Shown here in pieces: positions 12,998-63,922 of a DNA stretch of 64,000 bases. The DNA comes from Candidatus Yanofskybacteria bacterium. GTDB lineage: Bacteria; Patescibacteriota; Minisyncoccia; 2-02-FULL-40-12; IGHO2-12-FULL-4. A program made the translations under genes and the position numbers. The number at the start of each line of letters is the position of its first letter. Positions within the stretch are counted from its first letter, which is position 1. A model generated the notes under the pieces. It was not told the DNA's origin. It made no database searches and saw only the letters and a list, made by a program, of their open reading frames with translations. The DNA is taken from positions 23,008 through 87,007 of the forward strand of contig JACPNK010000007.1 in the NCBI GenBank assembly GCA_016185525.1, given 5' to 3'.

Positions 12998-13076
12998 AGT
13001 TGGTCATTTGAACATTAGACATTGGGGTTTCTTTAGAATAATTAGGTCAATTAGAATAATTAGAAATTAAAATTTT

Positions 13077-20602: not shown

Positions 20603-20705
20603 AATTAATCTAATTCACCTAATTATTCTAATTAATCTAAAATTTGAAAATTGGAACTTGGGACTTGTTTAGACTAATTAGAGCAATTAGAACAATTAGA
20701 AATTT
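20603..20705. repeat. AT-rich 'aattagNNcaattag' repeat cluster (family also at 13003-13076 and 21186-21346)
   Basis: Repeated aattagaRcaattagaa units in the rpsL-rpsG spacer. Confidence 0.6.
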
Positions 20706-21185: not shown

Positions 21186-21346
21186 AAATTTAAATTATTC
21201 TAATTATTCTAATTGACCTAATTATTCTAAAGAAACCCCAATGTCTAATGTTTAAATGACCAAAGAAAGCTTTGGACATTGGTTATTAATCATTGGGATT
21301 TCATTAGGTCAATTAGAGCAATTAGTATAATTAGGTCAATTTTTTG
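21186..21346. repeat. Palindromic roughly 160-bp MITE-like element of the aattag family; its left half is the reverse complement of 13003-13076
   Basis: The left arm (ctaattattctaattgacctaattattctaaagaaaccccaatgtctaatgtttaaatgacc) matches the reverse complement of 13003-13073 almost exactly. The right arm mirrors the left. Confidence 0.65.
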
Positions 21347-25293: not shown

Positions 25294-25629
25294 ATGACTA
25301 CCGAAAAGAAAAAAAACAAAGAAGTCTCCCAGAGAATAAGAATCAAACTGAAAGCTTATGACAATAAGATCATTGATAAGTCGGCGAAGCAAATAGTTGA
25401 AACCATAGAGAGATCCGGCGGTAAGGTGGTGGGTCCTGTGCCTTTGCCGACAGCTACTCACAAATATACTGTTAACAGATCTCCTTTTGTGTATAAAGAT
25501 TCTCGGGAACAGTTTGAGATGAGAGTTCACAAAAGGTTGATTGACGTCTCTAGTCCAACACCTAAGATTATTGACGCTCTTATGAACCTAAATTTGCCAG
25601 CCGGAGTGGATATAGAAATAAAAATGTAG
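25294..25629 (+). CDS. rpsJ: 30S ribosomal protein S10
   Basis: [16 protein letters not shown]... Confidence 0.9.
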
Positions 25630-25769
25630 ACCAGAATAATCAAGGAGATTATTTTGGTGTGCATTTTTATGTACAAATCAAATCCAATAGTTTTAAATTT
25701 TGATTTTTAGTTTTAATTTTACGGTTTAGTCGTATCTTGCCGGCTACAACCGGCCTTTTGTTTAAAATT

Positions 25770-26324: not shown

Positions 26325-26408
26325 AGTCTAGAGACTAAGGCCAGAAAAAGCTTTAGTCTTTAGTCTTTAGTCTTTAGTCTTTAGTCTTTAGTCTTTAGTC
26401 TTTAGACA
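26320..26408. repeat. Tandem heptamer (tctttag) x9 with an inverted (ctaaaga) arm; related element at 181-250
   Basis: Perfect tandem copies in the rplC-rplD spacer. Confidence 0.8.
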
Positions 26409-27071
26409 ATGAAAACTGACTTATACAATCAATCGGGTGAAATTATCGGCAAAACTGACTTACCAGAGGAAGTTTTTGGTTTAAAAATAAATCCGGATTT
26501 GTTGCGTCAGGTTATTGACATCCAAACATCAAACGCAAGGTCTGTCCTGGCTCACACTAAAGATCGGAGCGAGGTTAGAGGCGGCGGCAAAAAACCTTGG
26601 AAGCAAAAAGGCACCGGGCGGGCAAGGCACGGTTCTATAAGATCCCCTTTGTGGAAAGGCGGAGGCGTGACTTTTGGTCCCACTAAAAACAAAAATTTCA
26701 GCAAGAAGATAAATAAAAAGATGAAAAGAAAAGCCTTGTTCATGTCTTTGTCCAACAAAGTTTCAGATAACCAGTTCATGGTTTTGGACAGCATCAAGAT
26801 TGACCAGCCCAAGACAAAAAAAGCTCAGGGAATTTTTGATGTTTTGGCTTCAAAAACATCGGGTTACGTAAAGAGTAACAAAAAAAGAGACAGCATTCTT
26901 CTGATCTTGGGCAGTAAGAATAAAAACATAGAGCGTTCTGCCGGCAACCTTTCGTTTGTGAAAATACTGGAGGCTAAGAGCTTGGATGTTTTCAACGTGC
27001 TGTCTAATAAATTTATTTTTTTAGATAAAAGCGCAATTCCAGTCATTCAGGAAACATACAAGTTAAAATAA
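26409..27071 (+). CDS. rplD: 50S ribosomal protein L4
   Basis: GGGKKPWKQKGTGRARHGSIRSPLWKGGG. Confidence 0.9.
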   Translation: MKTDLYNQSGEIIGKTDLPEEVFGLKINPDLLRQVIDIQTSNARSVLAHTKDRSEVRGGGKKPWKQKGTGRARHGSIRSPLWKGGGVTFGPTKNKNFSKKINKKMKRKALFMSLSNKVSDNQFMVLDSIKIDQPKTKKAQGIFDVLASKTSGYVKSNKKRDSILLILGSKNKNIERSAGNLSFVKILEAKSLDVFNVLSNKFIFLDKSAIPVIQETYKLK

Positions 27072-28673: not shown

Positions 28674-29219
28674 ATGCAAGTTAATGCACAGTTAAACAAT
28701 TTAAGAATAGCGCCAAGAAAAGTCAGGCTGGTTGCCGGTTTGATTAAGGGCATGGATGTTGCTGTGGCAGAGCGCCAACTTTTATTTCTTGTGAAAAGGT
28801 CATCCGTCCCGTTGGCGAAACTGCTTAAATCGGCGGTTGCTAATGCTGAAAATAACTTTGGATTGCTCAAAGACAACTTGTTTATTAAAGATTTGATTGT
28901 AAATGAGGGCATGAAGATCAAAAGATATATGCCGAGAGCTATGGGACAAGCCAGTATGATTCAGAAAAAATCATCTCACATTAAGATTACTTTGGAGGAA
29001 AAAGTACCCGGTCTTAAACATGCTAATATAAAAACCGGATCTGTTAGTGAAGATAAGGTTTTAAAATCAAAAGAAAGCGAGTCTGTTGAATCCAAAGATT
29101 TAGGATTGGAGAAAAAGCCCGACTTCGGCACCGGTGTAAAGAAAGAGATATCAAAAAAGGGAGTTTTCGGCGGGGTTCAAGATATCAGTAGGAAATTGTT
29201 CAGAAGAAAAAGCGTTTAA
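28674..29219 (+). CDS. rplV: 50S ribosomal protein L22 (with roughly 70-aa C-terminal extension)
   Basis: MQVNAQLNNLRIAPRKVRLVAGLIKG... The ORF-track N-terminal extension overlapping rpsS is taken as spurious. Confidence 0.85.
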   Translation: MQVNAQLNNLRIAPRKVRLVAGLIKGMDVAVAERQLLFLVKRSSVPLAKLLKSAVANAENNFGLLKDNLFIKDLIVNEGMKIKRYMPRAMGQASMIQKKSSHIKITLEEKVPGLKHANIKTGSVSEDKVLKSKESESVESKDLGLEKKPDFGTGVKKEISKKGVFGGVQDISRKLFRRKSV

Positions 29220-29271
29220 GTATATGCCCGCACGCAGTCGAGCGTAGCGAGATGAGTACGGTAGCAGATAC

Positions 29272-29386
29272 TTACCCCGCCCTATCTGGAGTCAAAATCA
29301 TAGTTACTACTCCAGCTAGAGACGAAGTCGCCTTACGGCTCTGGTTATGCTTAAAGCATGACTTTGAACCCAGATAGGGCGGGGTG
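29272..29386. repeat. MITE-like insert with perfect 16-bp terminal inverted repeats (accccgccctatctgg / ccagatagggcggggt) in the rplV-rpsC spacer
   Basis: The inverted repeat and its structured interior were read directly. The rplV-rpsC gap is 228 nt, which is abnormally long. Confidence 0.55.
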
Positions 29387-29447
29387 CAGGTTTTCTAGCA
29401 ACTCAGCGGCGCAATCAGAATTGCTTGCTTCGTTGAGAAAATCTAGC

Positions 29448-30092
29448 ATGGGACAAAAAATATCACCAACATCTTTCAGGATAGGTTTAAATAAGGACTG
29501 GCTTTCCCGGTGGTTTGGTCTTGGCAGAAAGTATGTGGAATATTTTAGAGAAGATTTTGTCATCAGACAATTTTTGTCTAAGAAGATCAAAAATATGAGT
29601 GTAGACAGAGTGGAAATTGAAAAAAGTCCGGATGTTTTAACAATTATTATCCATACCGCCAGACCCGGTTTGTTGATAGGACGGGGCGGAACCGGTGCGG
29701 AGGATTTAAAAAAAGAAATTTTAAGACTGGTTAAGAGAAAGACCGCTATCAGAATAGATATCCAAGAATATAAAAATCCGGAAACTTCAGCGGCAATTAT
29801 GGCGGAGTCTATAGTTGAGCAAATAGAAAAAAGGATGCCTTTCAGAAGGATATTAAAACAGACATTGGCAAAAATTATTGCTAACAAAAAAGATGTAAAA
29901 GGAGCAAAAATTGAAGTTGCCGGCAGGCTTAATGGCGCAGAAATTGCCAGAACCGAACATTTGGAAGAAGGAAATCTACCGTTACAAACATTGCGCGCTG
30001 AAATAGATTATGCCAAAAGGACTGCTCATACGACTTATGGCACAATCGGTGTTAAAGTCTGGATATATAAAGGAGAACGATTTGGTTATTAA
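29448..30092 (+). CDS. rpsC: 30S ribosomal protein S3
   Basis: [18 protein letters not shown]... The N-terminal extension in the ORF track (start 29358) is spurious. Confidence 0.9.
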
Positions 30093-31345: not shown

Positions 31346-31377
31346 TTGTTAACAAGTTTTGAAAATATCAATCTTTC

Positions 31378-31544
31378 AGTACGTTCGTCTGCTCCTGCGG
31401 CAGACTCACTCGCGCTGAAGTTGCAAAGGAGAAGTTTCTGGTGGGCGGTGCTTTAGCCCGCCCATAGAATCTCCTAGGGTTTGCTCGCAGTTATAAGAAT
31501 AATTATACTGCTCGCAACCAAGCAACCCTCAACTTCAGAGCGAC
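31378..31544 (+). repeat. Structured intergenic repeat element (second copy at 57608-57741)
   Basis: Both copies share the blocks agtacgttcgtctgctcctgc...ggcagactcactcgcgctgaagttg...gggtttgctcgcagttataagaataattatactgctcgcaaccaagcaaccctcaacttcagagcgac. A long-range pairing cgctgaagttg/caacttcagagcg is present. Confidence 0.7.
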
Positions 31545-31586
31545 TTCAAGAGTGATATTCTCAAAACTTGTTAAAAGAGTAGTCAT

Positions 31587-32479: not shown

Positions 32480-32563
32480 AGTTAGAAAGTTCATAAAGTA
32501 AGAAATTAAAACTTGATGAACTTGATAAACTTTTAACTTGATAAACTAGTTTGTGAAACAAAT

Positions 32564-48754: not shown

Positions 48755-51139
48755 TTGGTAAAAATTAAAAATGTTGCCAAGGAGATTAATTTAAGAGGAA
48801 CACCAAGGTCCGACCTTGGGGAGGGAAATTTAACGCCGATATTTTCTTTGCCGACCTGCCCGCCAGTCGCCTTGGCTTCAGGCCATGGCAGGCGGGGTTT
48901 GCGTGCTGTTGAAGTTAAAAAAACTCAAAATCGTGACGAACTAGTTAACGAGTTACATAGTGAATTACAAAAAAAGGATGAACTAGAGTTTGTCTTAGCT
49001 GAAGTGGGCGGGATGATGCATAAGAATGGTTTAAAAGAGAGCTTTAGAAAAAATATTCCTGTGCCGAGAGTGGAAAATATAGCCTTGGCCGAGTTAACTG
49101 TTTCGCCGGCGGCCAGAGAGATGGAAGTGCGGTTAGAGAATTTTCAGAATCTCGCGTCATCCGATGACGCGAGTGCCAATTATTCTAATTTACTTAATCA
49201 AGTCCCAACAACCAATGCGGGTATCCAGAAAGAACAGCGGACTCAAAGACGATATTTATCAAGGTTAAAACTTACTGCTTTTGGCGTATTGCTTATTGCT
49301 TTTGTTTTTTTCGGGCTTTTTAAACTAAAAAATAACTTACAGACAGAAGTAGCACAGAGCGGAAATGAGGCTGTTGAAAATCTGGAAACGGCCAAGGCGG
49401 ATATTGAAAAATTTGATTTTGCTTCGGCTGCCAGACATTTTGCTTTGGCTTATGAAAGTTTTTCCAGCGCTTCTTCTGATTTAAATTTACTGGGAAATTC
49501 GCTCTCTTCTTTTTTGGGCGAGATTCCCGGATTCGGTAAACTTAAATCGGTCCAGAACTTATCTAAAGCGGGAGCAAATGTGGCAGAGGCGGGCAAGACT
49601 CTCTCTCTGGCGGTTGACAGTTTTTATCGCTCCAACCTGGCTTCTGAAAAAAAATCTTTTTTGGACTTCATCACTCCGCTTAAAGCCTCTTTGACTTCCG
49701 CTCAAGGGCAGGTCAAATTGGCCAGTCAACTCTTGGCTGATATTGACGAAAGTGCGATACCGGAAGAAAAAAAAGAATCTTTTTTGAATTTTAGTTCCAA
49801 GCTGCCTGATTTGCAGAACTTTGTGGACGGAGCATTGAATTATGCCGGATTTCTGTCGGAAGTGGTGGGAGAGTCGGGGCCTAAAAAATACCTGATTCTT
49901 TTCCAGAACAATACCGAGTTAAGGCCGACCGGCGGATTTGTCGGCAGTTACGCCTTGGCCGACTTTTCCAGAGGGTTTTTAAGAGACTTGAAAGTTGAAG
50001 ATGTTTACCATACGGACGGGCAGGCCAAAAAAAATATCATTCCGCCGAAAGAACTTCAGCATATAACCCCGAATTGGGGCATGAGGGATGCTAACTGGTT
50101 TGTTAACTTTCCAGATTCAGCGCGCAAAGTGATGGAGATGTATACCGAGAACGACGGCGGACCGTTGGTGGACGGAGTTTTAAGTATTACTCCGGACGTC
50201 ATCTTGAAAATTTTGGAAATAACCGGCCCGATTGGACTCCCGGAATACGGCCGGACGATTGACAGTAAAAACTTTTTGGCCGAAATTCAGGAGGAGGTGG
50301 AATATGGAGAAAACAGGGAAAAACCCAAACAGATTCTGGTTGACTTTATGCCAAAGTTTATGGAGATACTGGGCCGACAAGACAAGGAAAAATGGCTGGA
50401 GATTATTAAAATTTTGGCGGCAAGCGTGGAGCAAAAGCATATTCTCGCCTATTTTAAAAATTCTTCTTTAGAGAAAGCGGCAACTGACAATGGTTTTGGC
50501 GGCGAAGTCGTAGAGACAGACGGAGACTTCCTTATGGTCGCGCACAGCAATGTAAAAGGCTCAAAGACGGACGCGGTGATTGATAATTCTTATGAACTGG
50601 ACTCTTGGCTGTCGGAAGATGGTTTTGTTGAACACGAGTTAAAGATTAAGAGAAAACACAACGGCGGAAAAACAAAACTAGGTTTTTATAACAGGACTAA
50701 TTATGACTTTGTCAGGGTTTTGGTGCCGGAAGGCTCGGTCTTGTCAGAGATAAGAGGCAATTACAAAGCCAACTTTAAACCACTTATAGATTATAAAGAA
50801 AGCGCTACTTTTGTGACAGACGCAGACTTGGAAAATTATGAGAGTAGCCCAAAAGAAAGCGGAAAAAGCGTTTTTAGTTTTTGGCTTAAGCTTGAACCGG
50901 GACAATCTCAAGAAGTGGTTTTAGAATATCGGACGCCGATTAATGTTGGTGCCGGTAACTACACTCTTTTGGTCCAAAAACAGCCTGGTACAACTGATGA
51001 CGAATTTAATTTTATCTTCCAGCTGCCTGCGGGAAAGAAGGTAACTTACAAGTATCCTGAACTTGCCACTCAAGATGATGTAGTGTATTTTGACACTTAT
51101 CTTTTGAAAGACTTGGTTATCGGGCTTAAATTGCAATAA
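48755..51139 (+). CDS. Large membrane-anchored extracytoplasmic protein, possibly DUF4012-like (start uncertain)
   Basis: TM helix (LTAFGVLLIAFVFFGLF) after a coiled-coil region, and an RPTGGFVGSYA motif. The first in-frame ATG is at 49013; the ORF track uses TTG at 48755. Confidence 0.45.
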   Translation: MVKIKNVAKEINLRGTPRSDLGEGNLTPIFSLPTCPPVALASGHGRRGLRAVEVKKTQNRDELVNELHSELQKKDELEFVLAEVGGMMHKNGLKESFRKNIPVPRVENIALAELTVSPAAREMEVRLENFQNLASSDDASANYSNLLNQVPTTNAGIQKEQRTQRRYLSRLKLTAFGVLLIAFVFFGLFKLKNNLQTEVAQSGNEAVENLETAKADIEKFDFASAARHFALAYESFSSASSDLNLLGNSLSSFLGEIPGFGKLKSVQNLSKAGANVAEAGKTLSLAVDSFYRSNLASEKKSFLDFITPLKASLTSAQGQVKLASQLLADIDESAIPEEKKESFLNFSSKLPDLQNFVDGALNYAGFLSEVVGESGPKKYLILFQNNTELRPTGGFVGSYALADFSRGFLRDLKVEDVYHTDGQAKKNIIPPKELQHITPNWGMRDANWFVNFPDSARKVMEMYTENDGGPLVDGVLSITPDVILKILEITGPIGLPEYGRTIDSKNFLAEIQEEVEYGENREKPKQILVDFMPKFMEILGRQDKEKWLEIIKILAASVEQKHILAYFKNSSLEKAATDNGFGGEVVETDGDFLMVAHSNVKGSKTDAVIDNSYELDSWLSEDGFVEHELKIKRKHNGGKTKLGFYNRTNYDFVRVLVPEGSVLSEIRGNYKANFKPLIDYKESATFVTDADLENYESSPKESGKSVFSFWLKLEPGQSQEVVLEYRTPINVGAGNYTLLVQKQPGTTDDEFNFIFQLPAGKKVTYKYPELATQDDVVYFDTYLLKDLVIGLKLQ

Positions 51140-51712: not shown

Positions 51713-51746
51713 AAGCGATCGCAAGGTCGTTTTTTGATTTACAAAA

Positions 51747-52475
51747 TTACAATGGGCATCTTTGCAAGGATTGCAAAGATGCCCATTGTAATTGTATGAT
51801 TGGTTACATATGAACTATAGAGATTATAAACAATTCGGAGTAGGCAAATACTACCATATTTTTAATAGGGGCAATGAAAAGAAAAATATTTTTATTGACG
51901 AGAGCGATTTCAGCTTTTTTATAACCAGACTAAAACAAAACTTATTTCCTGATGACAAATTAAAAACACGCATTCGTCTATTGCCACCAAATTCTTTTTC
52001 TTTGGTTTGTTATTGTTTAATGCCAAATCATTTTCATTTTCTAATCAGACAAAACAAAGAAATACCCATAAGCAAACTTATGGCAAAATTGTGTACTAGC
52101 TATTCGAAATATTTTAACAAAAGATATGATAGAGTAGGTCATGTTTTTCAGGACCAATTTAAACAAGTTTCAGTTAGCGGTAATTCTTATCTGACTTGGC
52201 TTTCGTGTTATATTCATCAAAACCCGAAAATTTCAGGTTTGGTAAATAGAGCTACTGACTATAATTGGAGTAGTTACGCCGAGTTTGTTAAGCCTTCCGG
52301 TTTTTCAATTTGCGAAAAAGATATTGTCCTCAGTCAATTTAAAAATGTAGCTCATTATGAAAATTTCGTTGAGAGTAGCTATGAGACCATAAAGAAGAGG
52401 AAAGATCTTGGCGAATTTCTACTTAACTAAACAATGGGCATCTTTGCAAGGACTGCAAAGATGCCCATTGTAGGC
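51747..52475 (+). mobile_element. IS200/IS605-family (Y1 HUH transposase) element bounded by near-identical roughly 40-bp palindromes
   Basis: Left palindrome: aattacaatgggcatctttgcaaggattgcaaagatgcccattgtaatt (51747-51795). Right palindrome: caatgggcatctttgcaaggactgcaaagatgcccattg (52433-52471). The TnpA ORF lies between them. Confidence 0.75.
51810..52430 (+). CDS. tnpA: IS200-like / REP-associated tyrosine transposase (TnpA, Y1 HUH)
   Basis: YHIFNRGNEKKNIF...CYCLMPNHFHFLIRQ (HuH motif) ... catalytic Tyr region. The ATG at 51810 is preferred over the TTG at 51792. Confidence 0.75.
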   Translation: MNYRDYKQFGVGKYYHIFNRGNEKKNIFIDESDFSFFITRLKQNLFPDDKLKTRIRLLPPNSFSLVCYCLMPNHFHFLIRQNKEIPISKLMAKLCTSYSKYFNKRYDRVGHVFQDQFKQVSVSGNSYLTWLSCYIHQNPKISGLVNRATDYNWSSYAEFVKPSGFSICEKDIVLSQFKNVAHYENFVESSYETIKKRKDLGEFLLN

Positions 52476-52477
52476 TT

Positions 52478-54343
52478 ATGCAAAATATCCGCAATTTTGC
52501 AATTATCGCTCATATTGATCACGGAAAATCAACTTTAGCTGATCGGCTTTTGGAATTGACGGGGACGATAGAGAAAAGAAAAATGCAGGAGCAGTTTTTG
52601 GATACGATGGAGCTGGAAAGAGAAAGAGGAATTACCATAAAACTTCAACCGGTAAGGATGATGTATAGGCTGTCTAAAGACCAAAGTCCAAAGTCTAAGG
52701 TGGAAGTCCCTGGCTTTAGCCATTCGACTTTAGACTTTAGTCAGGAATATGTTTTGAATTTGATTGATACGCCGGGGCATGTGGACTTTACTTATGAAGT
52801 TTCTCGCTCGCTGGCGGCGGTGGAGGGGGTGATTTTATTGGTGGATGCGACGCAGGGTGTGCAGGCGCAGACTTTGGCTAACTTGGTTTTGGCCCAAAAA
52901 CTGAAACTGGCAATAATTCCCGTGATCAATAAAATTGACTTGCCGAATGCCAGAGTCAAAGAAGTTGAAGAAGAAATTTTCAATTTGCTGGGGGTGGGTC
53001 CGGACGAGATTCTCAAGATATCAGCCAAGACCGGCGAGGGAGTCAAGGAAGTTCTTGAGGCAGTGATTGAGCGTGTTCCTCCGGCGCCGACCGGTGACGG
53101 CGAATTCAGGGCTCTAATTTTTGACTCGGTTTTTGACACTTACAAAGGGGTTATTGCTTTTGTCAGAGTTTTCGGCGGCTCCTTGAAGGCGGGTGATGAG
53201 ATCAAGCTTTTTGCGGCAAAAGAAAAGGGCGAAGCGTTGGAAGTCGGGTACTTTTCGCCTAAACTTCAAAAGAACCAGGAGCTTACTAGCGGGGAAATAG
53301 GTTATGTGGCGACTGGCATAAAGTTGCCCCAAAAAGTCAGGGTTGGCGATACGATAATGAAAAGTAACTCTAGCGCCATAGCCTTGCCGGGGTATCAGGA
53401 TCCCTTGCTTGTTGTCTTCGCCAGTTTTTATCCAGAAGATTCTGATCAGTTTGACGACTTAAAAGACGCTTTGGGTAAATTGAAGTTAACTGATGCTTCG
53501 CTTTCTTTTGAACCGGAAAGCTCACCGGCCTTAGGGCGGGGTTTCCGTCTTGGATTTTTGGGTTTGCTTCACATAGAGATTATAAGCGAGAGACTGAAGA
53601 GAGAGTTCGGTCTTGGTCTGATAATTTCTTCGCCGACAGTTGAGTACGAAATGACTCTGAAAAAAGGGCAAGCAATAAAAATACGCTCGGCCAATCAAGT
53701 TCCCGACCCTACTTTTATTGAAAAAATAAGAGAGCCAATCAGTCTGTTGAATATAATTACACCTTTGGCCTACTTGGGTTCAGTTATGAAGCTTATCGGC
53801 GAGATCAGGAGCAGTTACAAGGAGACAAATTATTTAAGCAAAGAAATTGTGCGTTTGGTTTACGAGGTGCCGCTTAGCGAAATTATTACCGATTTTTATG
53901 ATCGTCTTAAGAGTGTCAGTTCCGGTTATGCCTCAATGAGCTATGAACCAACTGGCTACAATGAGGCTGATTTGATAAGATTGGATATATTGATTGCCGG
54001 TGACAAAGTTGAACCTTTTTCTAAAATTGTGCCCAGAGACCAAGCCGAAAGAGTCGGTCGGGCGATGGTTGAGAAACTCAAGGACGTGATACCTCAACAG
54101 CTTTTTGCAGTTTCTCTGCAGGCAGCGGTTGGCGGTCCTTCGACAGGCTCAGGACATGGCAAAATTATTGCCAGAGAAACGATAAAGGCCAGAAGAAAAG
54201 ATGTTACCGGTTATCTTTATGGCGGAGACGTTACCAGAAAAAAGAAGCTTTTGGAGAAACAAAAAAGGGGTAAGGAAAGGATGAAGGAAGAAGGCGGGGT
54301 AAACATTCCTCAAAAAGTCTTTTTGGAGATGTTAAAAAAATAG
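52478..54343 (+). CDS. lepA: Elongation factor 4 (LepA)
   Basis: IRNFAIIAHIDHGKSTLADRLL plus the LepA-specific C-terminal domain. Confidence 0.92.
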   Translation: MQNIRNFAIIAHIDHGKSTLADRLLELTGTIEKRKMQEQFLDTMELERERGITIKLQPVRMMYRLSKDQSPKSKVEVPGFSHSTLDFSQEYVLNLIDTPGHVDFTYEVSRSLAAVEGVILLVDATQGVQAQTLANLVLAQKLKLAIIPVINKIDLPNARVKEVEEEIFNLLGVGPDEILKISAKTGEGVKEVLEAVIERVPPAPTGDGEFRALIFDSVFDTYKGVIAFVRVFGGSLKAGDEIKLFAAKEKGEALEVGYFSPKLQKNQELTSGEIGYVATGIKLPQKVRVGDTIMKSNSSAIALPGYQDPLLVVFASFYPEDSDQFDDLKDALGKLKLTDASLSFEPESSPALGRGFRLGFLGLLHIEIISERLKREFGLGLIISSPTVEYEMTLKKGQAIKIRSANQVPDPTFIEKIREPISLLNIITPLAYLGSVMKLIGEIRSSYKETNYLSKEIVRLVYEVPLSEIITDFYDRLKSVSSGYASMSYEPTGYNEADLIRLDILIAGDKVEPFSKIVPRDQAERVGRAMVEKLKDVIPQQLFAVSLQAAVGGPSTGSGHGKIIARETIKARRKDVTGYLYGGDVTRKKKLLEKQKRGKERMKEEGGVNIPQKVFLEMLKK

Positions 54344-57509: not shown

Positions 57510-57607
57510 TATTCTGCCTTTTTAAAGAACCTTTGATTTTATTGGCTTACTTTACATTAGTGCATAGTATTAGTCAAACTAGAAAGCTTGTAAAATACCG
57601 CTTCTTT

Positions 57608-57741
57608 AGTACGTTCGTCTGCTCCTGCCTGCCTGCCGGCAGGCAGGCGGCAGACTCACTCGCGCTGAAGTTGGGGTTTGCTCGCAGTTATAAGAATAAT
57701 TATACTGCTCGCAACCAAGCAACCCTCAACTTCAGAGCGAC
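57608..57741 (+). repeat. Second copy of the structured element seen at 31378-31544, here with an expanded (cctgcctgcc/ggcaggcagg) hairpin
   Basis: About 90% identity over the shared blocks. It lies in the prfB 5' region. Confidence 0.7.
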
Positions 57742-57771
57742 CGCAGAAGGCAACTGCGTTACAATTTAAAG

Positions 57772-58804
57772 ATGGCCGAAAAAGACACCAAAATAGAAGA
57801 TTTAAAAACTGAACTCCGCCAGCTTGCGGAGCGTCTTTGAGGTTGCTCAAAAGACAGAAAAAATCAAAGAGATTGAGGTAAAAATGCAGGCTTCGGATTT
57901 TTGGAAGGACTACGAATCGGCCCAAAAAATGACCGGTGAGCTAAGTTATTTGAAGAGTGAAGTTGAGGAGGTTGAGAAACTGGAAAAAGACTTTGAAAAT
58001 CCGGAACTTTGGCAGGAAGCAGAAAAAAGACTTAAGTCTTTGAAGCTTAAAACTCTTTTTTCAGGAAAGTATGACAAAAGCAATGCTTTGCTTGAAGTTT
58101 TTTCCGGCGCCGGTGGGATAGATGCCCAGGATTGGGCAGCTATGCTTTTCAAGATGTATCAGCGTTACGCGGAAAAAAATAATTTTAATTTCAGAATTTT
58201 ACATCAGTCTTTCGGAGAGCAGAAAGGTTTAAAGTCGGCTACAGCCGAGATCAAGGGCAAGTTTGCTTACGGTTATTTGAAAGGCGAGTCGGGTGTGCAC
58301 CGCTTAGTCAGAATTTCGCCATTTTCAGCCAAAAACTTGAGACATACTTCATTTGCTTTGGTTGATTTTCTGCCTTTGATTGAGGATGTCAGTTTTCAAG
58401 TCAGAACCGAAGATTTAAAAATAGACACATTCAAGTCGTCCGGTCCCGGCGGTCAGAATGTAAATAAACTGGAGACGGCCGTAAGGGTTACTCATTTGCC
58501 AACCGGTTTGGCGGTGGCGGTGCAATCAGAAAGATCACAGAGTCAAAACAAGGAAAAAGCTTTGCAGGTGCTATACGCTAGGCTGGCGCAGTTAATGGAG
58601 AAACAAAAGATAGAAGAGCTTTCAAAGTTAAAGTCGCAAAAGGAACCGGGCGGCGTGGAGTGGGGCAGTCAGATCAGGTCTTATGTTTTGCATCCTTACA
58701 AATTAGTGAAAGATCACAGAACAGGTGTGGAATCTTCCCAGCCGGAAAAAGTTTTGGACGGAGAATTGGAGGAATTTATTGAAGCAGAAGTCAGTTTATT
58801 ATGA
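57772..58804 (+). CDS. prfB: Peptide chain release factor 2, with programmed +1 frameshift at CUU UGA (57835-57840)
   Basis: Frame 0 from ATG 57772 reads MAEKDTKIEDLKTELRQLAERL then hits an in-frame TGA. An SD-like GGAG lies 3 nt upstream of CTT. The +1 frame continues EVAQKT... through the SPF and GGQ motifs. Confidence 0.9.
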
Positions 58805-60637: not shown

Positions 60638-61152
60638 TGAAAGAAATTGAGAGGAAGTTTTTAGTTAAGAAGTTACCGCCAGGTTACAATTTTTCAAGGT
60701 CTAAAATAAGGCAAGGTTACATTGTAATTTCGCCAGATTTAAAAAGCTGCGTTAGGCTTAGGGAAGAAAGACATTTGCCCGAAAAAGGATTTAAGTTCAG
60801 AGCTTTCAAAGAATTTACACAGACTGTCAAGCGAGGCAGTGGCAAGGTCAGGGATGAGTTTGAGATAGAGACTTTTCAATGGCAATTTACGGCGCTTTGG
60901 CCGACAACTGCCGGAAGAAGGCTGGAAAAAACAAGAAATTATTTCTATGACCCGTCTTTTTACAAAGGGCAACTGTGTCTTCTGGACGTTTTTCATAAAA
61001 ATCTTAAGGGATTGATTCTGGTTGAGGTGGAGTTTAACTCTGAAAAGGAAGCCGATGCTTTTGTTCCGCTTGATTGGTTCGGAAAAGAAGTTACGGAAGA
61101 TAAGAGATACAGTAACCAAAGTCTCGCCACGCACGGTCTGCCAGCCGGATAG
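60637..61152 (+). CDS. CYTH-domain protein (CyaB/thiamine-triphosphatase-like triphosphate tunnel metalloenzyme)
   Basis: N-terminal EIERKFLV (ExExK) signature. ATG 60637 is translationally coupled to the upstream peptide. Confidence 0.65.
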   Translation: MKEIERKFLVKKLPPGYNFSRSKIRQGYIVISPDLKSCVRLREERHLPEKGFKFRAFKEFTQTVKRGSGKVRDEFEIETFQWQFTALWPTTAGRRLEKTRNYFYDPSFYKGQLCLLDVFHKNLKGLILVEVEFNSEKEADAFVPLDWFGKEVTEDKRYSNQSLATHGLPAG

Positions 61153-61165
61153 ACAAGTTTGCCAT

Positions 61166-61191
61166 AGAGCGTTAACACGCTCTTTTGTTTT
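61166..61191 (+). terminator. Terminator agagcg-ttaaca-cgctct plus tttgtttt; its 3' half is duplicated at 62857-62879
   Basis: Read directly from the sequence. Confidence 0.6.
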
Positions 61192-61195
61192 AAAT
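61173..61195 (+). repeat. 23-bp direct repeat taacacgctcttttgttttaaat (left copy) bounding the GC-rich segment
   Basis: Identical 23-mer at 62857-62879. Confidence 0.8.
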
Positions 61196-61196
61196 C

Positions 61197-61319
61197 GCGG
61201 CGGCAGATAAGCTGTAACTCTCACCCCAATACAACTTTGTCTCTACTGGTGGTGGGGCAGTGCTAGCATTCCTGGCGGGGGAAGAGTTGCCAGGGTTAAA
61301 AGCTTTGGAAACAGTCTAA
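61197..61319 (+). pseudogene. pgk: Phosphoglycerate kinase 3'-terminal fragment with an internal stop
   Basis: Translates AAADKL*LSPQYNFVSTGGGAVLAFLAGEELPGLKALETV*. This is about 85% identical at the protein level to the C-terminus of the intact pgk at 42.2 kb, but divergent at synonymous sites. Confidence 0.6.
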
Positions 61320-61362
61320 TTTTGACTATTTTTCGGGGGTTTTGGTCGGGTAGTACATACAC

Positions 61363-61391
61363 TTGACAAACCCATAAAAAAAGAGTATAAT
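61363..61391 (+). promoter_or_regulatory. Perfect consensus sigma70 promoter TTGACA, 17-nt spacer, TATAAT
   Basis: Exact match read directly from the sequence. It points into the GC-rich segment. Confidence 0.55.
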
Positions 61392-61599
61392 TAAAGTATT
61401 GAAAAGTGGTTATTCCGGGTCACGGGTCAGCCTTTTTTCATTTTTTGCTCTTTTATAAATAAAAATAAATAAAAAAGACTTTTACCCCGACGCGAAGGGG
61501 ACTGACGGTCGCGAGCAGAGGCAATTACGCTTCTTCGCGGCCAAGGTAGTTGCAGTAAAAAATCAGTCCCGCTATGGAGCGCGGACGGGGGAGAAGAAA

Positions 61600-61818
61600 A
61601 TGTTATTAGTAGGGATGTGGGTGGAAGTGAGTGGAGTCGCAATGAATTATGACTCCACTAAAAAAATGTATTTACCCGCCGCGGCAAGAGGCGAACGGGG
61701 GGTTGTTAACTCCAACCATCCCAGTGGGATGGTTGGAGTCAGATTTTCAAAGTTTGTAGGATACGGCCATCAGCCGTACTTCTACTACTTTAAGGAAAGC
61801 GATCTCATCGAGTTATAA
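61600..61818 (+). CDS. Hypothetical 72-aa protein (aromatic-rich C-terminus), ends inside a 15-bp perfect hairpin
   Basis: GGGGGAGAAG RBS before the ATG. A hairpin ggaaagcgatctcat...atgagatcgctttcc lies at 61781-61822. Confidence 0.3.
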   Translation: MLLVGMWVEVSGVAMNYDSTKKMYLPAAARGERGVVNSNHPSGMVGVRFSKFVGYGHQPYFYYFKESDLIEL

Positions 61819-62113
61819 TGAGATCGCTTTCCAAGGGTTTGAGGATTTTCCCGCGGTAAATAAAAATCCTAGCTCTTTCAATAAAAGCGCAAAGAAAGGA
61901 GAACATTTGCACATAAGATAGCAGGGGATCGTCCTGCTGAAAAAACGACTAGGTCTGGCGAGTACCTGAAACTAAAACTCGCCACCTTAACTCAAGCTAT
62001 CAATATAGTGTTGACGGCTTGATCCAAGGTTAGGACGTTAAAAAAATAAATAGCCGGGTTTAACTCGGCGAGCAGGGGACTGCTTGAGTGTCCCACCCTT
62101 GAAAGGAGGGTTT

Positions 62114-62278
62114 ATGAGATCAGAGGTTTTATTGAACAGATTAGATATGGAGGCAGCACTGGCGAATGCCTCCGAAGAAATTTTGACCCCGTACTGGGGG
62201 GTGGTGGGTGGCGTGACCAAAATGGGAGTCGCCGCCGCGATAGCAACAGGGCGGGGGCCAGGAGTGGTCAATAAGTAA
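62114..62278 (+). CDS. 54-aa Gly/Ala-rich small peptide, bacteriocin-like (speculative)
   Basis: AAAGGAGGG RBS 4 nt before the ATG. Sequence MRSEVLLNRLDMEAALANASEEILTPYWGVVGGVTKMGVAAAIATGRGPGVVNK. Confidence 0.35.
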   Translation: MRSEVLLNRLDMEAALANASEEILTPYWGVVGGVTKMGVAAAIATGRGPGVVNK

Positions 62279-62303
62279 TGGCCACCTGTCGCCCAAAAGC
62301 GAT

Positions 62304-62492
62304 TTGGTAATTTATGTAAATATTGCCCTCGCGGAGTTGGTGGGCGGCAAGGCGGAAGCCCAGGGGCTGACGCCAACTTTATTGAGAAGGAGATTGGAGA
62401 GGATGGGGCTACTCACCGAGGCCGGTGAGTGGCGGACAGGTTGGATCGGGAACCGTTATCGGTTCCAGGTGGATCCGGTGGCCTGTCGGTAG
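62304..62492 (+). CDS. Second small ORF (62 aa from TTG 62304, or 29 aa from ATG 62404 which has an AAGGAG/GGAGAGG RBS)
   Basis: Contains LAELVGG. Followed 4 nt later by a terminator. Confidence 0.3.
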   Translation: MVIYVNIALAELVGGKAEAQGLTPTLLRRRLERMGLLTEAGEWRTGWIGNRYRFQVDPVACR

Positions 62493-62495
62493 AAT

Positions 62496-62518
62496 CGTCG
62501 GCAGGATCGACGTTTTTT
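62496..62518 (+). terminator. Terminator cgtcg-gcaggat-cgacg plus T6
   Basis: Read directly from the sequence. Confidence 0.6.
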
Positions 62519-62823
62519 AGTGAATTGAATCGCAATGCTTCTTCGGAAATGCACAGCGATTCGACCGCATGGGTAATGGCGGTATAGCCGGGCGCAAGCT
62601 CGAGGTGCATGGATCGAAGATTTCTTTCGACCCTGGTAAATTAAAAATCCGAGCATGACCTACCTTTTGCCGCGAGGCATCTAGAGGGTCATGGGCTCCT
62701 ACGAATTGGAGCAAAATGCAATCATAAAGAATTTATATATAGGGAGATCTCGTTTGATCGACATCTCCCTTCCTTACTCAAGTTCGGAAGTGAAAACTTA
62801 CGAATTTGAATGAAAGTTTTTTT

Positions 62824-62851
62824 GAGCCAGCCCCAAGCTGGCTCTTGTTTT
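62824..62851 (+). terminator. Terminator gagccagc-cccaa-gctggctc plus ttgtttt
   Basis: Read directly from the sequence. Confidence 0.6.
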
Positions 62852-62856
62852 ACCCG

Positions 62857-62879
62857 TAACACGCTCTTTTGTTTTAAAT
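62857..62879 (+). repeat. 23-bp direct repeat, right copy
   Basis: Identical to 61173-61195. Confidence 0.8.
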
Positions 62880-62955
62880 TATTTTAGTTAAGATGAAATT
62901 ATTGCGGGATCGTCTAGTGGTATACAAAAATCAAAGTCTATGATAGAATTAATGT

Positions 62956-63858
62956 GTGGAAAGTTGTAAATTATGCGATAAAAAATTCAAAATAATAAGT
63001 AACACGCACCTATTACTGGCACATCAAATTAGAGTTCGAGACTACATTAAAAAATTTGGTCATAAAGGGGTGGGCTTTATTGTTAATGTTTTAAAATTGC
63101 CAAAGGACGACCCGCGTTATATTTTTTGGAGGAAAAGTTTGGAAAGAAGAAATACGGGCTGGGCTAAGGGTTTTACCAAAAATACTCATCCTAGCTTAGC
63201 AAAAATGGCCCAAACTTTTAAAACAAAGAAGATTGATAATTTTAAAAAATGGAGGGAAGAGTCTAAGCTATCTGGTAAAATTCCTGCAAGTTATCCTGAA
63301 TTTAAAAAAGATAAGAACTTGGCTTTTTTGATAGGGATGACCTTGGGTGATGGTAATATATATAAATTTCCAAGAACAGAGAACTTAAGGATAGCGTTGG
63401 CCTCCAAATATCCTAAGTTGGTTGCATTTACTGCCAATGTCATTAAAAAAGTTTTTAGCAAAACTCCGACCGTTAGGAAAATCAAAAATTCAAGGTGCTT
63501 TACGGTTGGCATTTACCAAAACAATATCAGTAGTCGCCTTGGCATTCCAACAGGAGAAAGGAGTCGACTCAATTTTAACATACCAAGTTGGATTTCCGAA
63601 AATAAAATTTTTCTTACAAATTTTCTAAGAGGATTATTTGAGGCAGAGGGTTCCCTTTCGGTTCATTTGCCGACATGTACTTATAACTTCTCTTTTGCTA
63701 ATAGAAACAAAAGTTTATTGAAAATTGTTGAAAAGTCGTTAAAATTACTAGGTTATCATCCAGAAATAAGATCTGTTGCTGTTCGTTTGCGTAGAAAGGT
63801 CGAAGTTGAGAATTTTAAGCAGTTAATTAGTTTTAGAGTTTACAAATTGCGGGGTTGA
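62956..63858 (+). CDS. LAGLIDADG-type homing endonuclease with an N-terminal C2H2-like zinc finger
   Basis: CKLCDKKF...HLLLAH, then two dodecapeptide motifs (KNLAFLIGMTLGDGNIY and FLRGLFEAEGSLSV). GTG start. The 3' end overlaps tRNA-Gln by 11 nt. Confidence 0.6.
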   Translation: MESCKLCDKKFKIISNTHLLLAHQIRVRDYIKKFGHKGVGFIVNVLKLPKDDPRYIFWRKSLERRNTGWAKGFTKNTHPSLAKMAQTFKTKKIDNFKKWREESKLSGKIPASYPEFKKDKNLAFLIGMTLGDGNIYKFPRTENLRIALASKYPKLVAFTANVIKKVFSKTPTVRKIKNSRCFTVGIYQNNISSRLGIPTGERSRLNFNIPSWISENKIFLTNFLRGLFEAEGSLSVHLPTCTYNFSFANRNKSLLKIVEKSLKLLGYHPEIRSVAVRLRRKVEVENFKQLISFRVYKLRG

Positions 63859-63922
63859 GCAATGGTAGTCTCGTCAGGCTCTGAACCTGAAGATCCTGGT
63901 TCAAGTCCAGGCCCCGCAGCCA
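63848..63922 (+). tRNA. tRNA-Gln (anticodon CTG), CCA encoded
   Basis: Acceptor TGCGGGG/CCCCGCA with U1-A72 and G73 discriminator (Gln-typical). Anticodon arm TCAGG-CTCTGAA-CCTGA. T arm CCTGG-TTCAAGT-CCAGG. 3' end CCA. Confidence 0.85.

Follow-up and report, generated by a model that had tools for sequence, protein, structure and literature searches.

Two copies of a branched, palindromic element are present in the stretch of Candidatus Yanofskybacteria DNA analysed here (64,000 nucleotides, referred to as the window), and both are best explained, with a probability of roughly 0.55, as members of a previously undescribed, non-autonomous and modular palindromic repeat (family A), part of a superfamily in Ca. 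Yanofskybacteria and related Parcubacteria that would spread and recombine at the DNA level and be passively carried. Genomes of CPR bacteria (Patescibacteria) have the reputation of being small and streamlined, with little mobile DNA, yet the Yanofskybacteria lineage carries several families of branched hairpin repeats, which have invaded the normally tight S10-spc operon, the leader of prfB and the reading frame of a glycosyltransferase gene. The usual logic of a MITE is inverted in these repeats, the centre being conserved and the ends free but compensated; together with concerted evolution, module swapping and nesting, this suggests that the factor that spreads them is unlikely to be a standard transposase. 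A literature search found no account of such repeats in CPR bacteria.

The two copies in the window

An earlier note on this DNA had reported two copies in the same orientation, and both are found where it placed them, at 31378-31544 (copy A) and 57608-57741 (copy B), on the + strand. The long identical blocks that it described number three, each of them 100% identical (23-27 nt; 27 nt, 31397-31423 = 57647-57673; and 68 nt, 31477-31544 = 57674-57741), and fall within 31376-31544 and 57606-57741. No such match arose in 100 dinucleotide shuffles of the window, and a doubt that the blocks might be low-complexity sequence was dispelled. The pairings proposed earlier (cgctgaagttg with caacttcag, and gtctgc with gcagac) form part of the minimum-free-energy folds of the copies, for which z-scores against shuffles are -9.3 (copy A) and -7.6 (copy B) as RNA; folded as DNA, both strands are equally stable, with z about -11 on either. 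An expanded GC hairpin in one copy corresponds to a 20-nt palindromic (CTGC/GCAG)n extension of the first hairpin of copy B (approximately 57629-57648), and the insert with its own hairpin in the other copy, put at roughly 55 nt, measures 53 nt in copy A (31424-31476). The covariation-like differences that had been read from this pair do not exist, since copies A and B differ only by such whole-hairpin insertions or deletions and show no compensatory substitutions; compensatory changes become abundant once copies from other genomes are added.

The originally proposed unit of 140-170 nt was too small, as each core is closed by an outer stem of 20-30 bp, and copy A extends over approximately 31349-31577. 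Its copy-specific left arm (TTAACAAGTTTTGAAAATATCAATCTTTCAGT, 31349-31380, + strand, like all parts described here) forms a 32-nt inverted repeat, 88% complementary to 31543-31574, which is paired in both the RNA and the DNA folds. Pattern searching and alignment delimit the adjoining hairpin-1 module (31381-31412; ACGTTCG, stem, TCCTGCGG loop, stem, ACTCACTCG), which is common to families A, B and C. The 5' strand of the basal helix of the long arm (CGCTGAAGTTG, 31413-31423) pairs with 31530-31542 and is designated helix 4 in the family A alignment and helix 6 in the superfamily alignment. Between this strand and the distal long arm lies the 53-nt insert, a nested mini-hairpin module that is confined to copy A, being missing in copy B and in nine of nine other copies. 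The distal long arm (31477-31529), with an apical hairpin (GCAGTTATAA..TTATACTGC) and a conserved asymmetric bulge (CCAAGCAACCC, 31518-31528), is 100% identical to 57674-57726. It is followed by the 3' strand of the basal helix and the junction (CAACTTCAGAGCGAC, 31530-31544), identified by folding and alignment, in which GCGnC is kept across the superfamily, and by the right arm of the outer stem (31545-31577), identified by inverted repeat and fold, which ends 9 nt 5' of the rplX ATG (31587).

The core of copy B (57608-57741), defined by fold and alignment, comprises hairpin 1 (57611-57662), with its 20-nt extension, and then the long arm; the extension recurs in the copy of locus L003. The outer arms of copy B are a degenerate version of those of copy A. 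The left arm (AAGCTTGTAAAATACCGCTTCTTTAG, 57584-57607), of the AAGCTTCGCAG stem subfamily, matches the left flank of copy A with 80% identity over a 45-nt stretch and pairs weakly; the right arm (57742-57775), located by folding, ends 8 nt 5' of the prfB ATG (57783), and a covariance-model match covers 57580-57768.

Both genomic settings given in the earlier note are correct. Within the S10-spc operon, copy A separates the rplN stop codon from the Shine-Dalgarno region of rplX, filling the spacer from 3 nt after the stop to the 9 nt that precede the ATG, and copy B is directly upstream of prfB, where it fills most of the divergent ftsH-prfB spacer. The prfB gene has the usual programmed +1 frameshift site (CTT TGA) 19 codons past its ATG (57783-57845), which places copy B in the leader of an autoregulated gene. 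Neither a sigma-70-like promoter nor a terminator-like site was found on the + strand in copy A or B, and from this the copies may reasonably be predicted to be co-transcribed with the neighbouring genes. The rplN-rplX spacer is empty (14-18 nt) in three related lineages (RplX identity 90%, 82% and 80%), and in the metagenome-assembled genome JACOZX01 (RplX identity 87%) it is occupied by a 240-nt element of family B, similar in its outer stem and different in its long arm; the insertion in the window is therefore derived, and the site has been hit or remodelled more than once. A reading of the element as a ribosomal protein leader was rejected.

Further rod-like hairpins occur in the str, S10 and spc spacers of the window, at 21193-21341, 25603-25685, 29217-29448 and 32480-32563. 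The hairpin in the rpsG-fusA spacer (21193-21341, z = -7.8) has arms of 9-nt periodic units (AATTATTCT/AATTGACCT), and related 9-nt-periodic repeats are located at 20603-20649, 13022-13063 and 49178-49198; tandem units of 7 nt (CTTTAGTC/CTTTAGAC) at 171-248, 26351-26409 and 52714-52744 form hairpins or arrays in spacers such as rplC-rplD. Three strong hairpins in succession (29217-29448, z = -6.2) occupy the 139-nt spacer between rplV and rpsC together with the beginning of the rpsC open reading frame; the first contains GCAGATAC, a box also present in many family A outer stems, and one with 28-nt arms (29274-29301 and 29358-29385) suggests that the called S3 open reading frame has a spurious N-terminal extension. 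The rplE-rpsN spacer (32480-32563) is 84 nt long, compared with 12 nt in relatives (L013-L018), and consists of imperfect inverted repeats rich in AAGTT/AACTT. Close relatives carry another repeat, family E (approximately 135 nt, stem CCGATATTGCA...TGCAACGTCGG), as a clean insertion in their rplP-rpmC and rpsN-rpsH spacers (L014, 537-660 and 2577-2720; L013, 537-660; L026, 3498-3631); in the window, L019 and L025 there is no insert at the rplP-rpmC site, which measures 1-5 nt.

Related copies, shared architecture and compensatory change

Nine further copies were found elsewhere, in other Ca. Yanofskybacteria and in groundwater contigs. The window belongs to a Yanofskybacteria metagenome-assembled genome, and its RplX is 100% identical to the protein P0121. 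An exact-word scan of 185,579 species genomes found at least three, those listed all being in the Ca. Yanofskybacteria genome JACOZX01, and a metagenome scan found at least six groundwater contigs with copies, so that family A comprises at least 11 copies (two in the window, three in JACOZX01 and six in metagenome contigs) from at least three genomes or metagenomes. These copies share a core of approximately 112 nt with 91-100% identity, and each has its own outer stem of 20-30 bp, copy-specific in sequence and nearly perfect in its Watson-Crick pairing. A covariance model of the family A copies gave full-length matches (E from 1e-11 to 1e-21) to other families in the loci examined: family B in L019, L005 (twice) and L001; family C in L020 and L030; and additionally the insert of L032 and an element in the spacer between mreB and a glycosyltransferase gene in L030. 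The family A and B cores had no matches in scans of viral contigs. A comparison of the six translated frames with 5.8 billion proteins yielded one extra protein only, a truncated orthologous glycosyltransferase, which indicates that the element family is rare among called proteins. Nothing relevant was found in Rfam 15 with the whole window (at the gathering threshold), with copy A (E <= 10) or with the family A, B, C and L032 loci (E <= 1).

Short-read assemblies that carry the RplX or FtsH of the window break inside both window copies, as would be expected of a repeat; the exact-protein look-ups returned only such contigs. The practical consequence is that these repeats interrupt short-read assemblies and give rise to spurious N-terminal extensions, and to differences in length, among annotated genes.

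The common architecture is a rod of 160-230 nt with a three-way junction from which the outer stem, hairpin 1 and the long arm with its asymmetric bulge extend. Among the 11 copies of family A, 95.2% of the cells in the alignment pair and 31 of 55 pairs have changed on both sides, with 62 double changes and only four one-sided cells (of the G-U type); none of 500 shuffles reached the observed pairing, and slid controls paired at 30-42%. The copies thus show compensatory changes beyond controls, as in a generic test for structured RNA. In the 18-member alignment of the superfamily, which was fitted to the model and leans towards its structure, 93.6% of cells are paired, 45 of 55 pairs have changed on both sides and 14 cells are one-sided. 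Hairpin 1, which is helix 3 of the family A alignment and helices 4-5 of the superfamily alignment, has compensatory changes in both, and its loop is conserved while its stem varies. Constant across families are the ACGyTCG and CTCG flanks of hairpin 1, the loop YCCAGCG, the sequence GGaTT and, at the three-way junction, GCGnC; the motif of the asymmetric bulge, cmwGCAAyCC, is kept in families A, B and C and in L032.

Conservation of the junction and bulge across families in which the helices have fully covaried is what a functional RNA would show. The small number of one-sided changes and the equal folding of the two DNA strands fit a Watson-Crick or DNA-type constraint, and the compensatory signal, being expected of a DNA palindrome too, does not separate an RNA reading from a DNA reading. 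Folded as RNA, the antisense strand is slightly more stable than the sense strand in 16 of 16 elements; as DNA, the strands are equal, and the difference was taken to carry no information on sense versus antisense. The elements are co-oriented with neighbouring genes at 10 of 13 intergenic loci (14 of 17 if gene inserts are counted), and those of L008 and L025 and the family B copy of L001 are antisense to their neighbours.

In the approximately 270 kb of related sequence examined, no copy has a transposase gene next to it, and no gene that might mobilise the element was linked to it. Flanking direct repeats indicative of target-site duplication were absent at 10 copies, the termini are not conserved, and the left flanks of the copies have no common motif; TTAA at both ends of copy A and of the L003 copy is part of the palindrome. 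A search for joined stem-junction sequences, such as solo stems or excision footprints would contain, gave only chance matches in coding DNA.

Turnover, module exchange and the glycosyltransferase insert

Where loci are orthologous, the core has diverged far less than neighbouring synonymous sites, which are close to saturation, as would also be the case for a functional RNA: it is 97.3% identical between L001 and L005, compared with 60% at flanking third codon positions, and 97.6% identical between L002 and L007, compared with 69.6%. The L001 and L005 copies nonetheless have different junction types and differ at five of eight stem-box positions, all of them compensated. Variants of the apical loop mostly follow the source of the DNA: one is found in both window copies, a second in L001 and L003 of JACOZX01 (L002 of the same genome differs), and a third in L004, L005, L007 and L009 from contigs named Ga020954x (L006 from the same sample differs). 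Reassortment among the copies affects stem type, junction type, hairpin-1 extension and loop variant, and the 53-nt insert of copy A is 96% identical, in the opposite orientation, to part of a family D element in the glycosyltransferase gene of another organism (L023/L024). The pattern is one of concerted evolution with module exchange, rather than of simple vertical decay or vertical conservation.

The outer stem of the L020 element has as its left arm native coding sequence (CCG CCA GTC..., for a conserved YPPV motif) and as its right arm the reverse complement of that sequence, with at least nine extra base pairs that reach into the conserved codons. Chance would give such a match at a frequency of about 4^-9, and templated inverted copying at the DNA level is the simplest source of it in this single case. 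Also a single case, L021 keeps only the left arm and hairpin 1 and is accordingly a deletion derivative. A truncated piece of family B (left arm and 5' half of hairpin 1) at 850-897 of L003, in the dprA-topA spacer and directly upstream of the family A copy there, likewise ends near the hairpin-1 loop. The antisense family B copy of L001 (3326-3640) is situated in the 5' end of rsmI and is flanked by a diverged direct duplication of approximately 40 bp over the rsmI start (MPKLCVIGTP... / MPKLYVLATP...), a single case; the orthologous locus of L005 has neither the family B copy nor the duplication.

In a gene for a GT4 glycosyltransferase, the whole element with its arms is inserted in frame (168 nt = 56 codons) and the gene is intact. 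The insert is found in L002, L007 and L009 and in the proteins P0001 and P0003, between the conserved motifs VIYPP and YFLIVSRLF, and all glycosyltransferase inserts are multiples of three and free of stop codons. In the L002 lineage, hairpin 1 has an extra C and an extra G that pair with each other, so that the frame is shifted around a stop codon and the helix is kept. The same linker in orthologues holds a diverged family A element (L022, with many compensatory changes), an element of family C, family D or the L032 type, or nothing, and in-frame copies have been seen at this one gene hot spot only. Two of the three sense frames are open in minimal copies (shuffle probability approximately 0.02); over all families, the sense strand has open frames in 14 of 19 elements and the antisense strand in one of 19.

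These observations are most simply accommodated by a repeat that would insert into short spacers and permissive coding linkers, turn over at the DNA level, exchange modules between copies by recombination or gene conversion, and accept nested mini-hairpins. Complementarity of the arms would be kept by selection on the folded form or by templated repair within the hairpin, and the near-invariant core is presumably the part recognised by a putative trans-acting mobilising factor. The window copies are most probably passive passengers of the rplN-rplX transcript and of the 5' UTR of prfB, presumably neutral for the host, and the glycosyltransferase copy would be translated as a linker insert of 56 residues.

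Alternative explanations and comparison with known elements

The earlier note had offered a structured RNA or a MITE as explanations; the element is indeed multi-copy, strongly structured and of a MITE-like kind, but conserved terminal inverted repeats and target-site duplication, the hallmarks of a MITE, are lacking, and nothing in Rfam matches it. That it is a functional RNA module, the main rival explanation, is possible but not probable. According to this explanation, the core would be a small RNA or a cis-acting signal for protein binding or processing, and the outer stem would be an RNase III-type processing stem, like those that flank rRNA, which would release the core or cut the polycistronic mRNA at rplN-rplX, the prfB leader and other sites. 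At orthologous loci, an identity of approximately 97% in the core beside 60-70% at third codon positions would be understandable in these terms, as would the constancy of the junction residues, the hairpin-1 loop (CCAGCG) and the bulge (cmwGCAAyCC) in spite of fully covaried helices. Outer stems that are long, near-perfect duplexes would suit such processing, although G-U intermediates are nearly absent (four against 62 double changes) and cleavage of a copy inside an intact open reading frame would destroy that mRNA. Most copies are co-oriented with the flanking genes, transcription would read through them for want of a terminator, and several other rod-like hairpins occupy S10/spc spacers of this genome; against this, the copies of L008, L025 and family B in L001 are antisense to their neighbours, and the rplN-rplX site is empty in close relatives, which suggests that the element is dispensable there. 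Its lack of a match in Rfam also counts against an RNA, as does the L020 arm copied from host coding sequence, and turnover at the DNA level is indicated by the loop variants that follow the source and by the mosaic modules.

Mobilisation by an HUH/Y1 tyrosine transposase acting on the folded single-stranded DNA of the element, as with REP/REPIN-RAYT or IS200/IS605-derived PATE elements, is unlikely; hairpin 1 would then be the recognition hairpin. REP/REPIN-RAYT and PATE elements have no terminal inverted repeats, make no target-site duplication and insert in an orientation tied to replication. The present element resembles them in its lack of target-site duplication and of conserved terminal inverted repeats. 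Also in favour of this reading are the conserved hairpin-1 loop on a varying stem and the orientation bias of the copies, both window copies having the same sense on the + strand, which is the leading strand by GC skew. The window also encodes a Y1_Tnp (REP-associated tyrosine transposase)-like protein (51792-52430; Pfam PF01797, E = 1e-11; NCBIfam NF047646, 48.5 bits, below the cut-off of 80) between two near-identical, perfect palindromes of 42 nt (ACAATGGGCATCTTTGCAAGGATTGCAAAGATGCCCATTGTA; 51749-51790 and 52431-52472), a layout like that of a REPtron. These palindromes, however, share no sequence with elements of families A-E and have no other copy in the sequence examined, the left boundary of the element lacks a conserved tetra- or pentanucleotide, and REPINs have conserved arms and a variable centre, the opposite of what is seen here.

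Removal of the element from RNA as an intron-like or IVS-like intervening sequence, with the outer stem joining the flanks for excision and the host mRNA or protein being restored, is very improbable. The long closing stem exactly at the borders of the element, and the normal length of the linker once 168 nt are subtracted from the L002 glycosyltransferase, are what such excision would leave to be seen. The inserts in this gene are nevertheless multiples of three and stop-free, and the paired extra C and G of the L002 lineage shift the frame around a stop, which suggests selection for translation through the element; moreover, excision would delete the conserved YPP codons that form part of the L020 stem, and no group I, group II or ribozyme model matches. 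Two other candidates were rejected. A hammerhead-like appearance of hairpin 1 on the antisense strand (UGAG...CGAA, tandem G-A) was dismissed by eye, the CUGA box being absent, the motif not being kept in families B and C, and no ribozyme model matching. Integron attC sites have R''/R' boxes at the stem base (RYYYAAC...GTTRRRY) and form an array next to an integrase; on reading of the sequence the stem ends do not fit these boxes, and the copies are solitary and located in housekeeping operons.

A more specific proposal, and a speculative one, is that the core (hairpin-1 loop CCAGCG, junction residues and cmwGCAAyCC bulge) is the ligand of a dedicated protein. The element might then represent a class of hairpin mobile elements whose closing stem is rebuilt from the host flank by inverted templated copying, as in L020, and whose cores are swapped within resident stems, or else a family of small RNAs released by RNase III from operon spacers, 5' UTRs and open reading frames of CPR bacteria.

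The preferred reading of a passively carried DNA repeat may be compared with several known systems. Like a classical MITE, the element is small (160-230 nt, the class being smaller than approximately 600 bp), non-coding and present in multiple dispersed copies, but its arms differ from copy to copy while its centre is conserved, in place of conserved terminal inverted repeats, and it has no target-site duplication of fixed length. The Correia/NEMIS and RUP MITEs are also small, non-coding, multi-copy, hairpin-forming and co-transcribed with neighbouring genes; the element differs from them in having no conserved terminal inverted repeats or target-site duplication, and no parent insertion sequence is apparent beside the copies in the approximately 270 kb examined. 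The palindromic elements of Rickettsia (RPEs) are approximately 100-170 bp long, belong to several families, and occur in spacers and in frame in unrelated protein genes, with no known transposase (PMC10969869). The resemblance to them is one of behaviour, as both are palindromic repeats of several families in a small genome, found in spacers and as an in-frame gene insert with an open sense frame (PMC10969869). The host phylum is different (Patescibacteria/CPR), the core here is near-invariant across species, each copy has a closing stem of its own with compensated changes, modules show nesting and reassortment, and in-frame copies are restricted to one gene hot spot.

ERIC/IRU elements are likewise imperfect palindromes transcribed in operons, with longer variants made by extra blocks at fixed internal sites (compare the 53-nt and 20-nt inserts), but they have conserved ends and a simple foldback, whereas the ends are variable, the centre is conserved and a three-way junction is formed here. 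REP, BIME and REPIN-RAYT elements and PATEs, systems mobilised as single-stranded DNA, are similarly hairpin-based and non-autonomous, with no target-site duplication or classical terminal inverted repeats, and a RAYT-like gene is found between palindromes in the window; unlike REPINs, which have conserved arms and a variable loop, and unlike REP/REPIN-RAYT systems generally, the element does not have the same hairpins flanking a RAYT gene and dispersed in the genome. Nor is it inserted 3' of a conserved tetra- or pentanucleotide, as are IS200/IS605-type PATEs, which have subterminal hairpins at both ends, compared with one small conserved hairpin (hairpin 1) in the element. Intervening sequences and processing stems of rRNA share with it a long closing duplex, free in sequence with pairing kept, and a sporadic distribution among relatives, but the element is located in mRNAs and open reading frames rather than in rRNA, and its cleavage would be only putative. 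Coding palindromes in the mitochondria of Nematomorpha are also long in-frame inverted repeats of which both arms are translated; they are, however, perfect two-arm palindromes, mitochondrial, with no conserved branched core or dispersed copies (PMC6649704).

Elsewhere in the window, the REPtron-like unit spans 51745-52472, its palindromes being unrelated to the element studied here. Within 61152-63919, approximately 1.8 kb contains no convincing open reading frames and has no Rfam match (E <= 0.1); this stretch is followed by an open reading frame encoding a LAGLIDADG domain (62956-63858), the end of which overlaps a tRNA gene (63848-63919).
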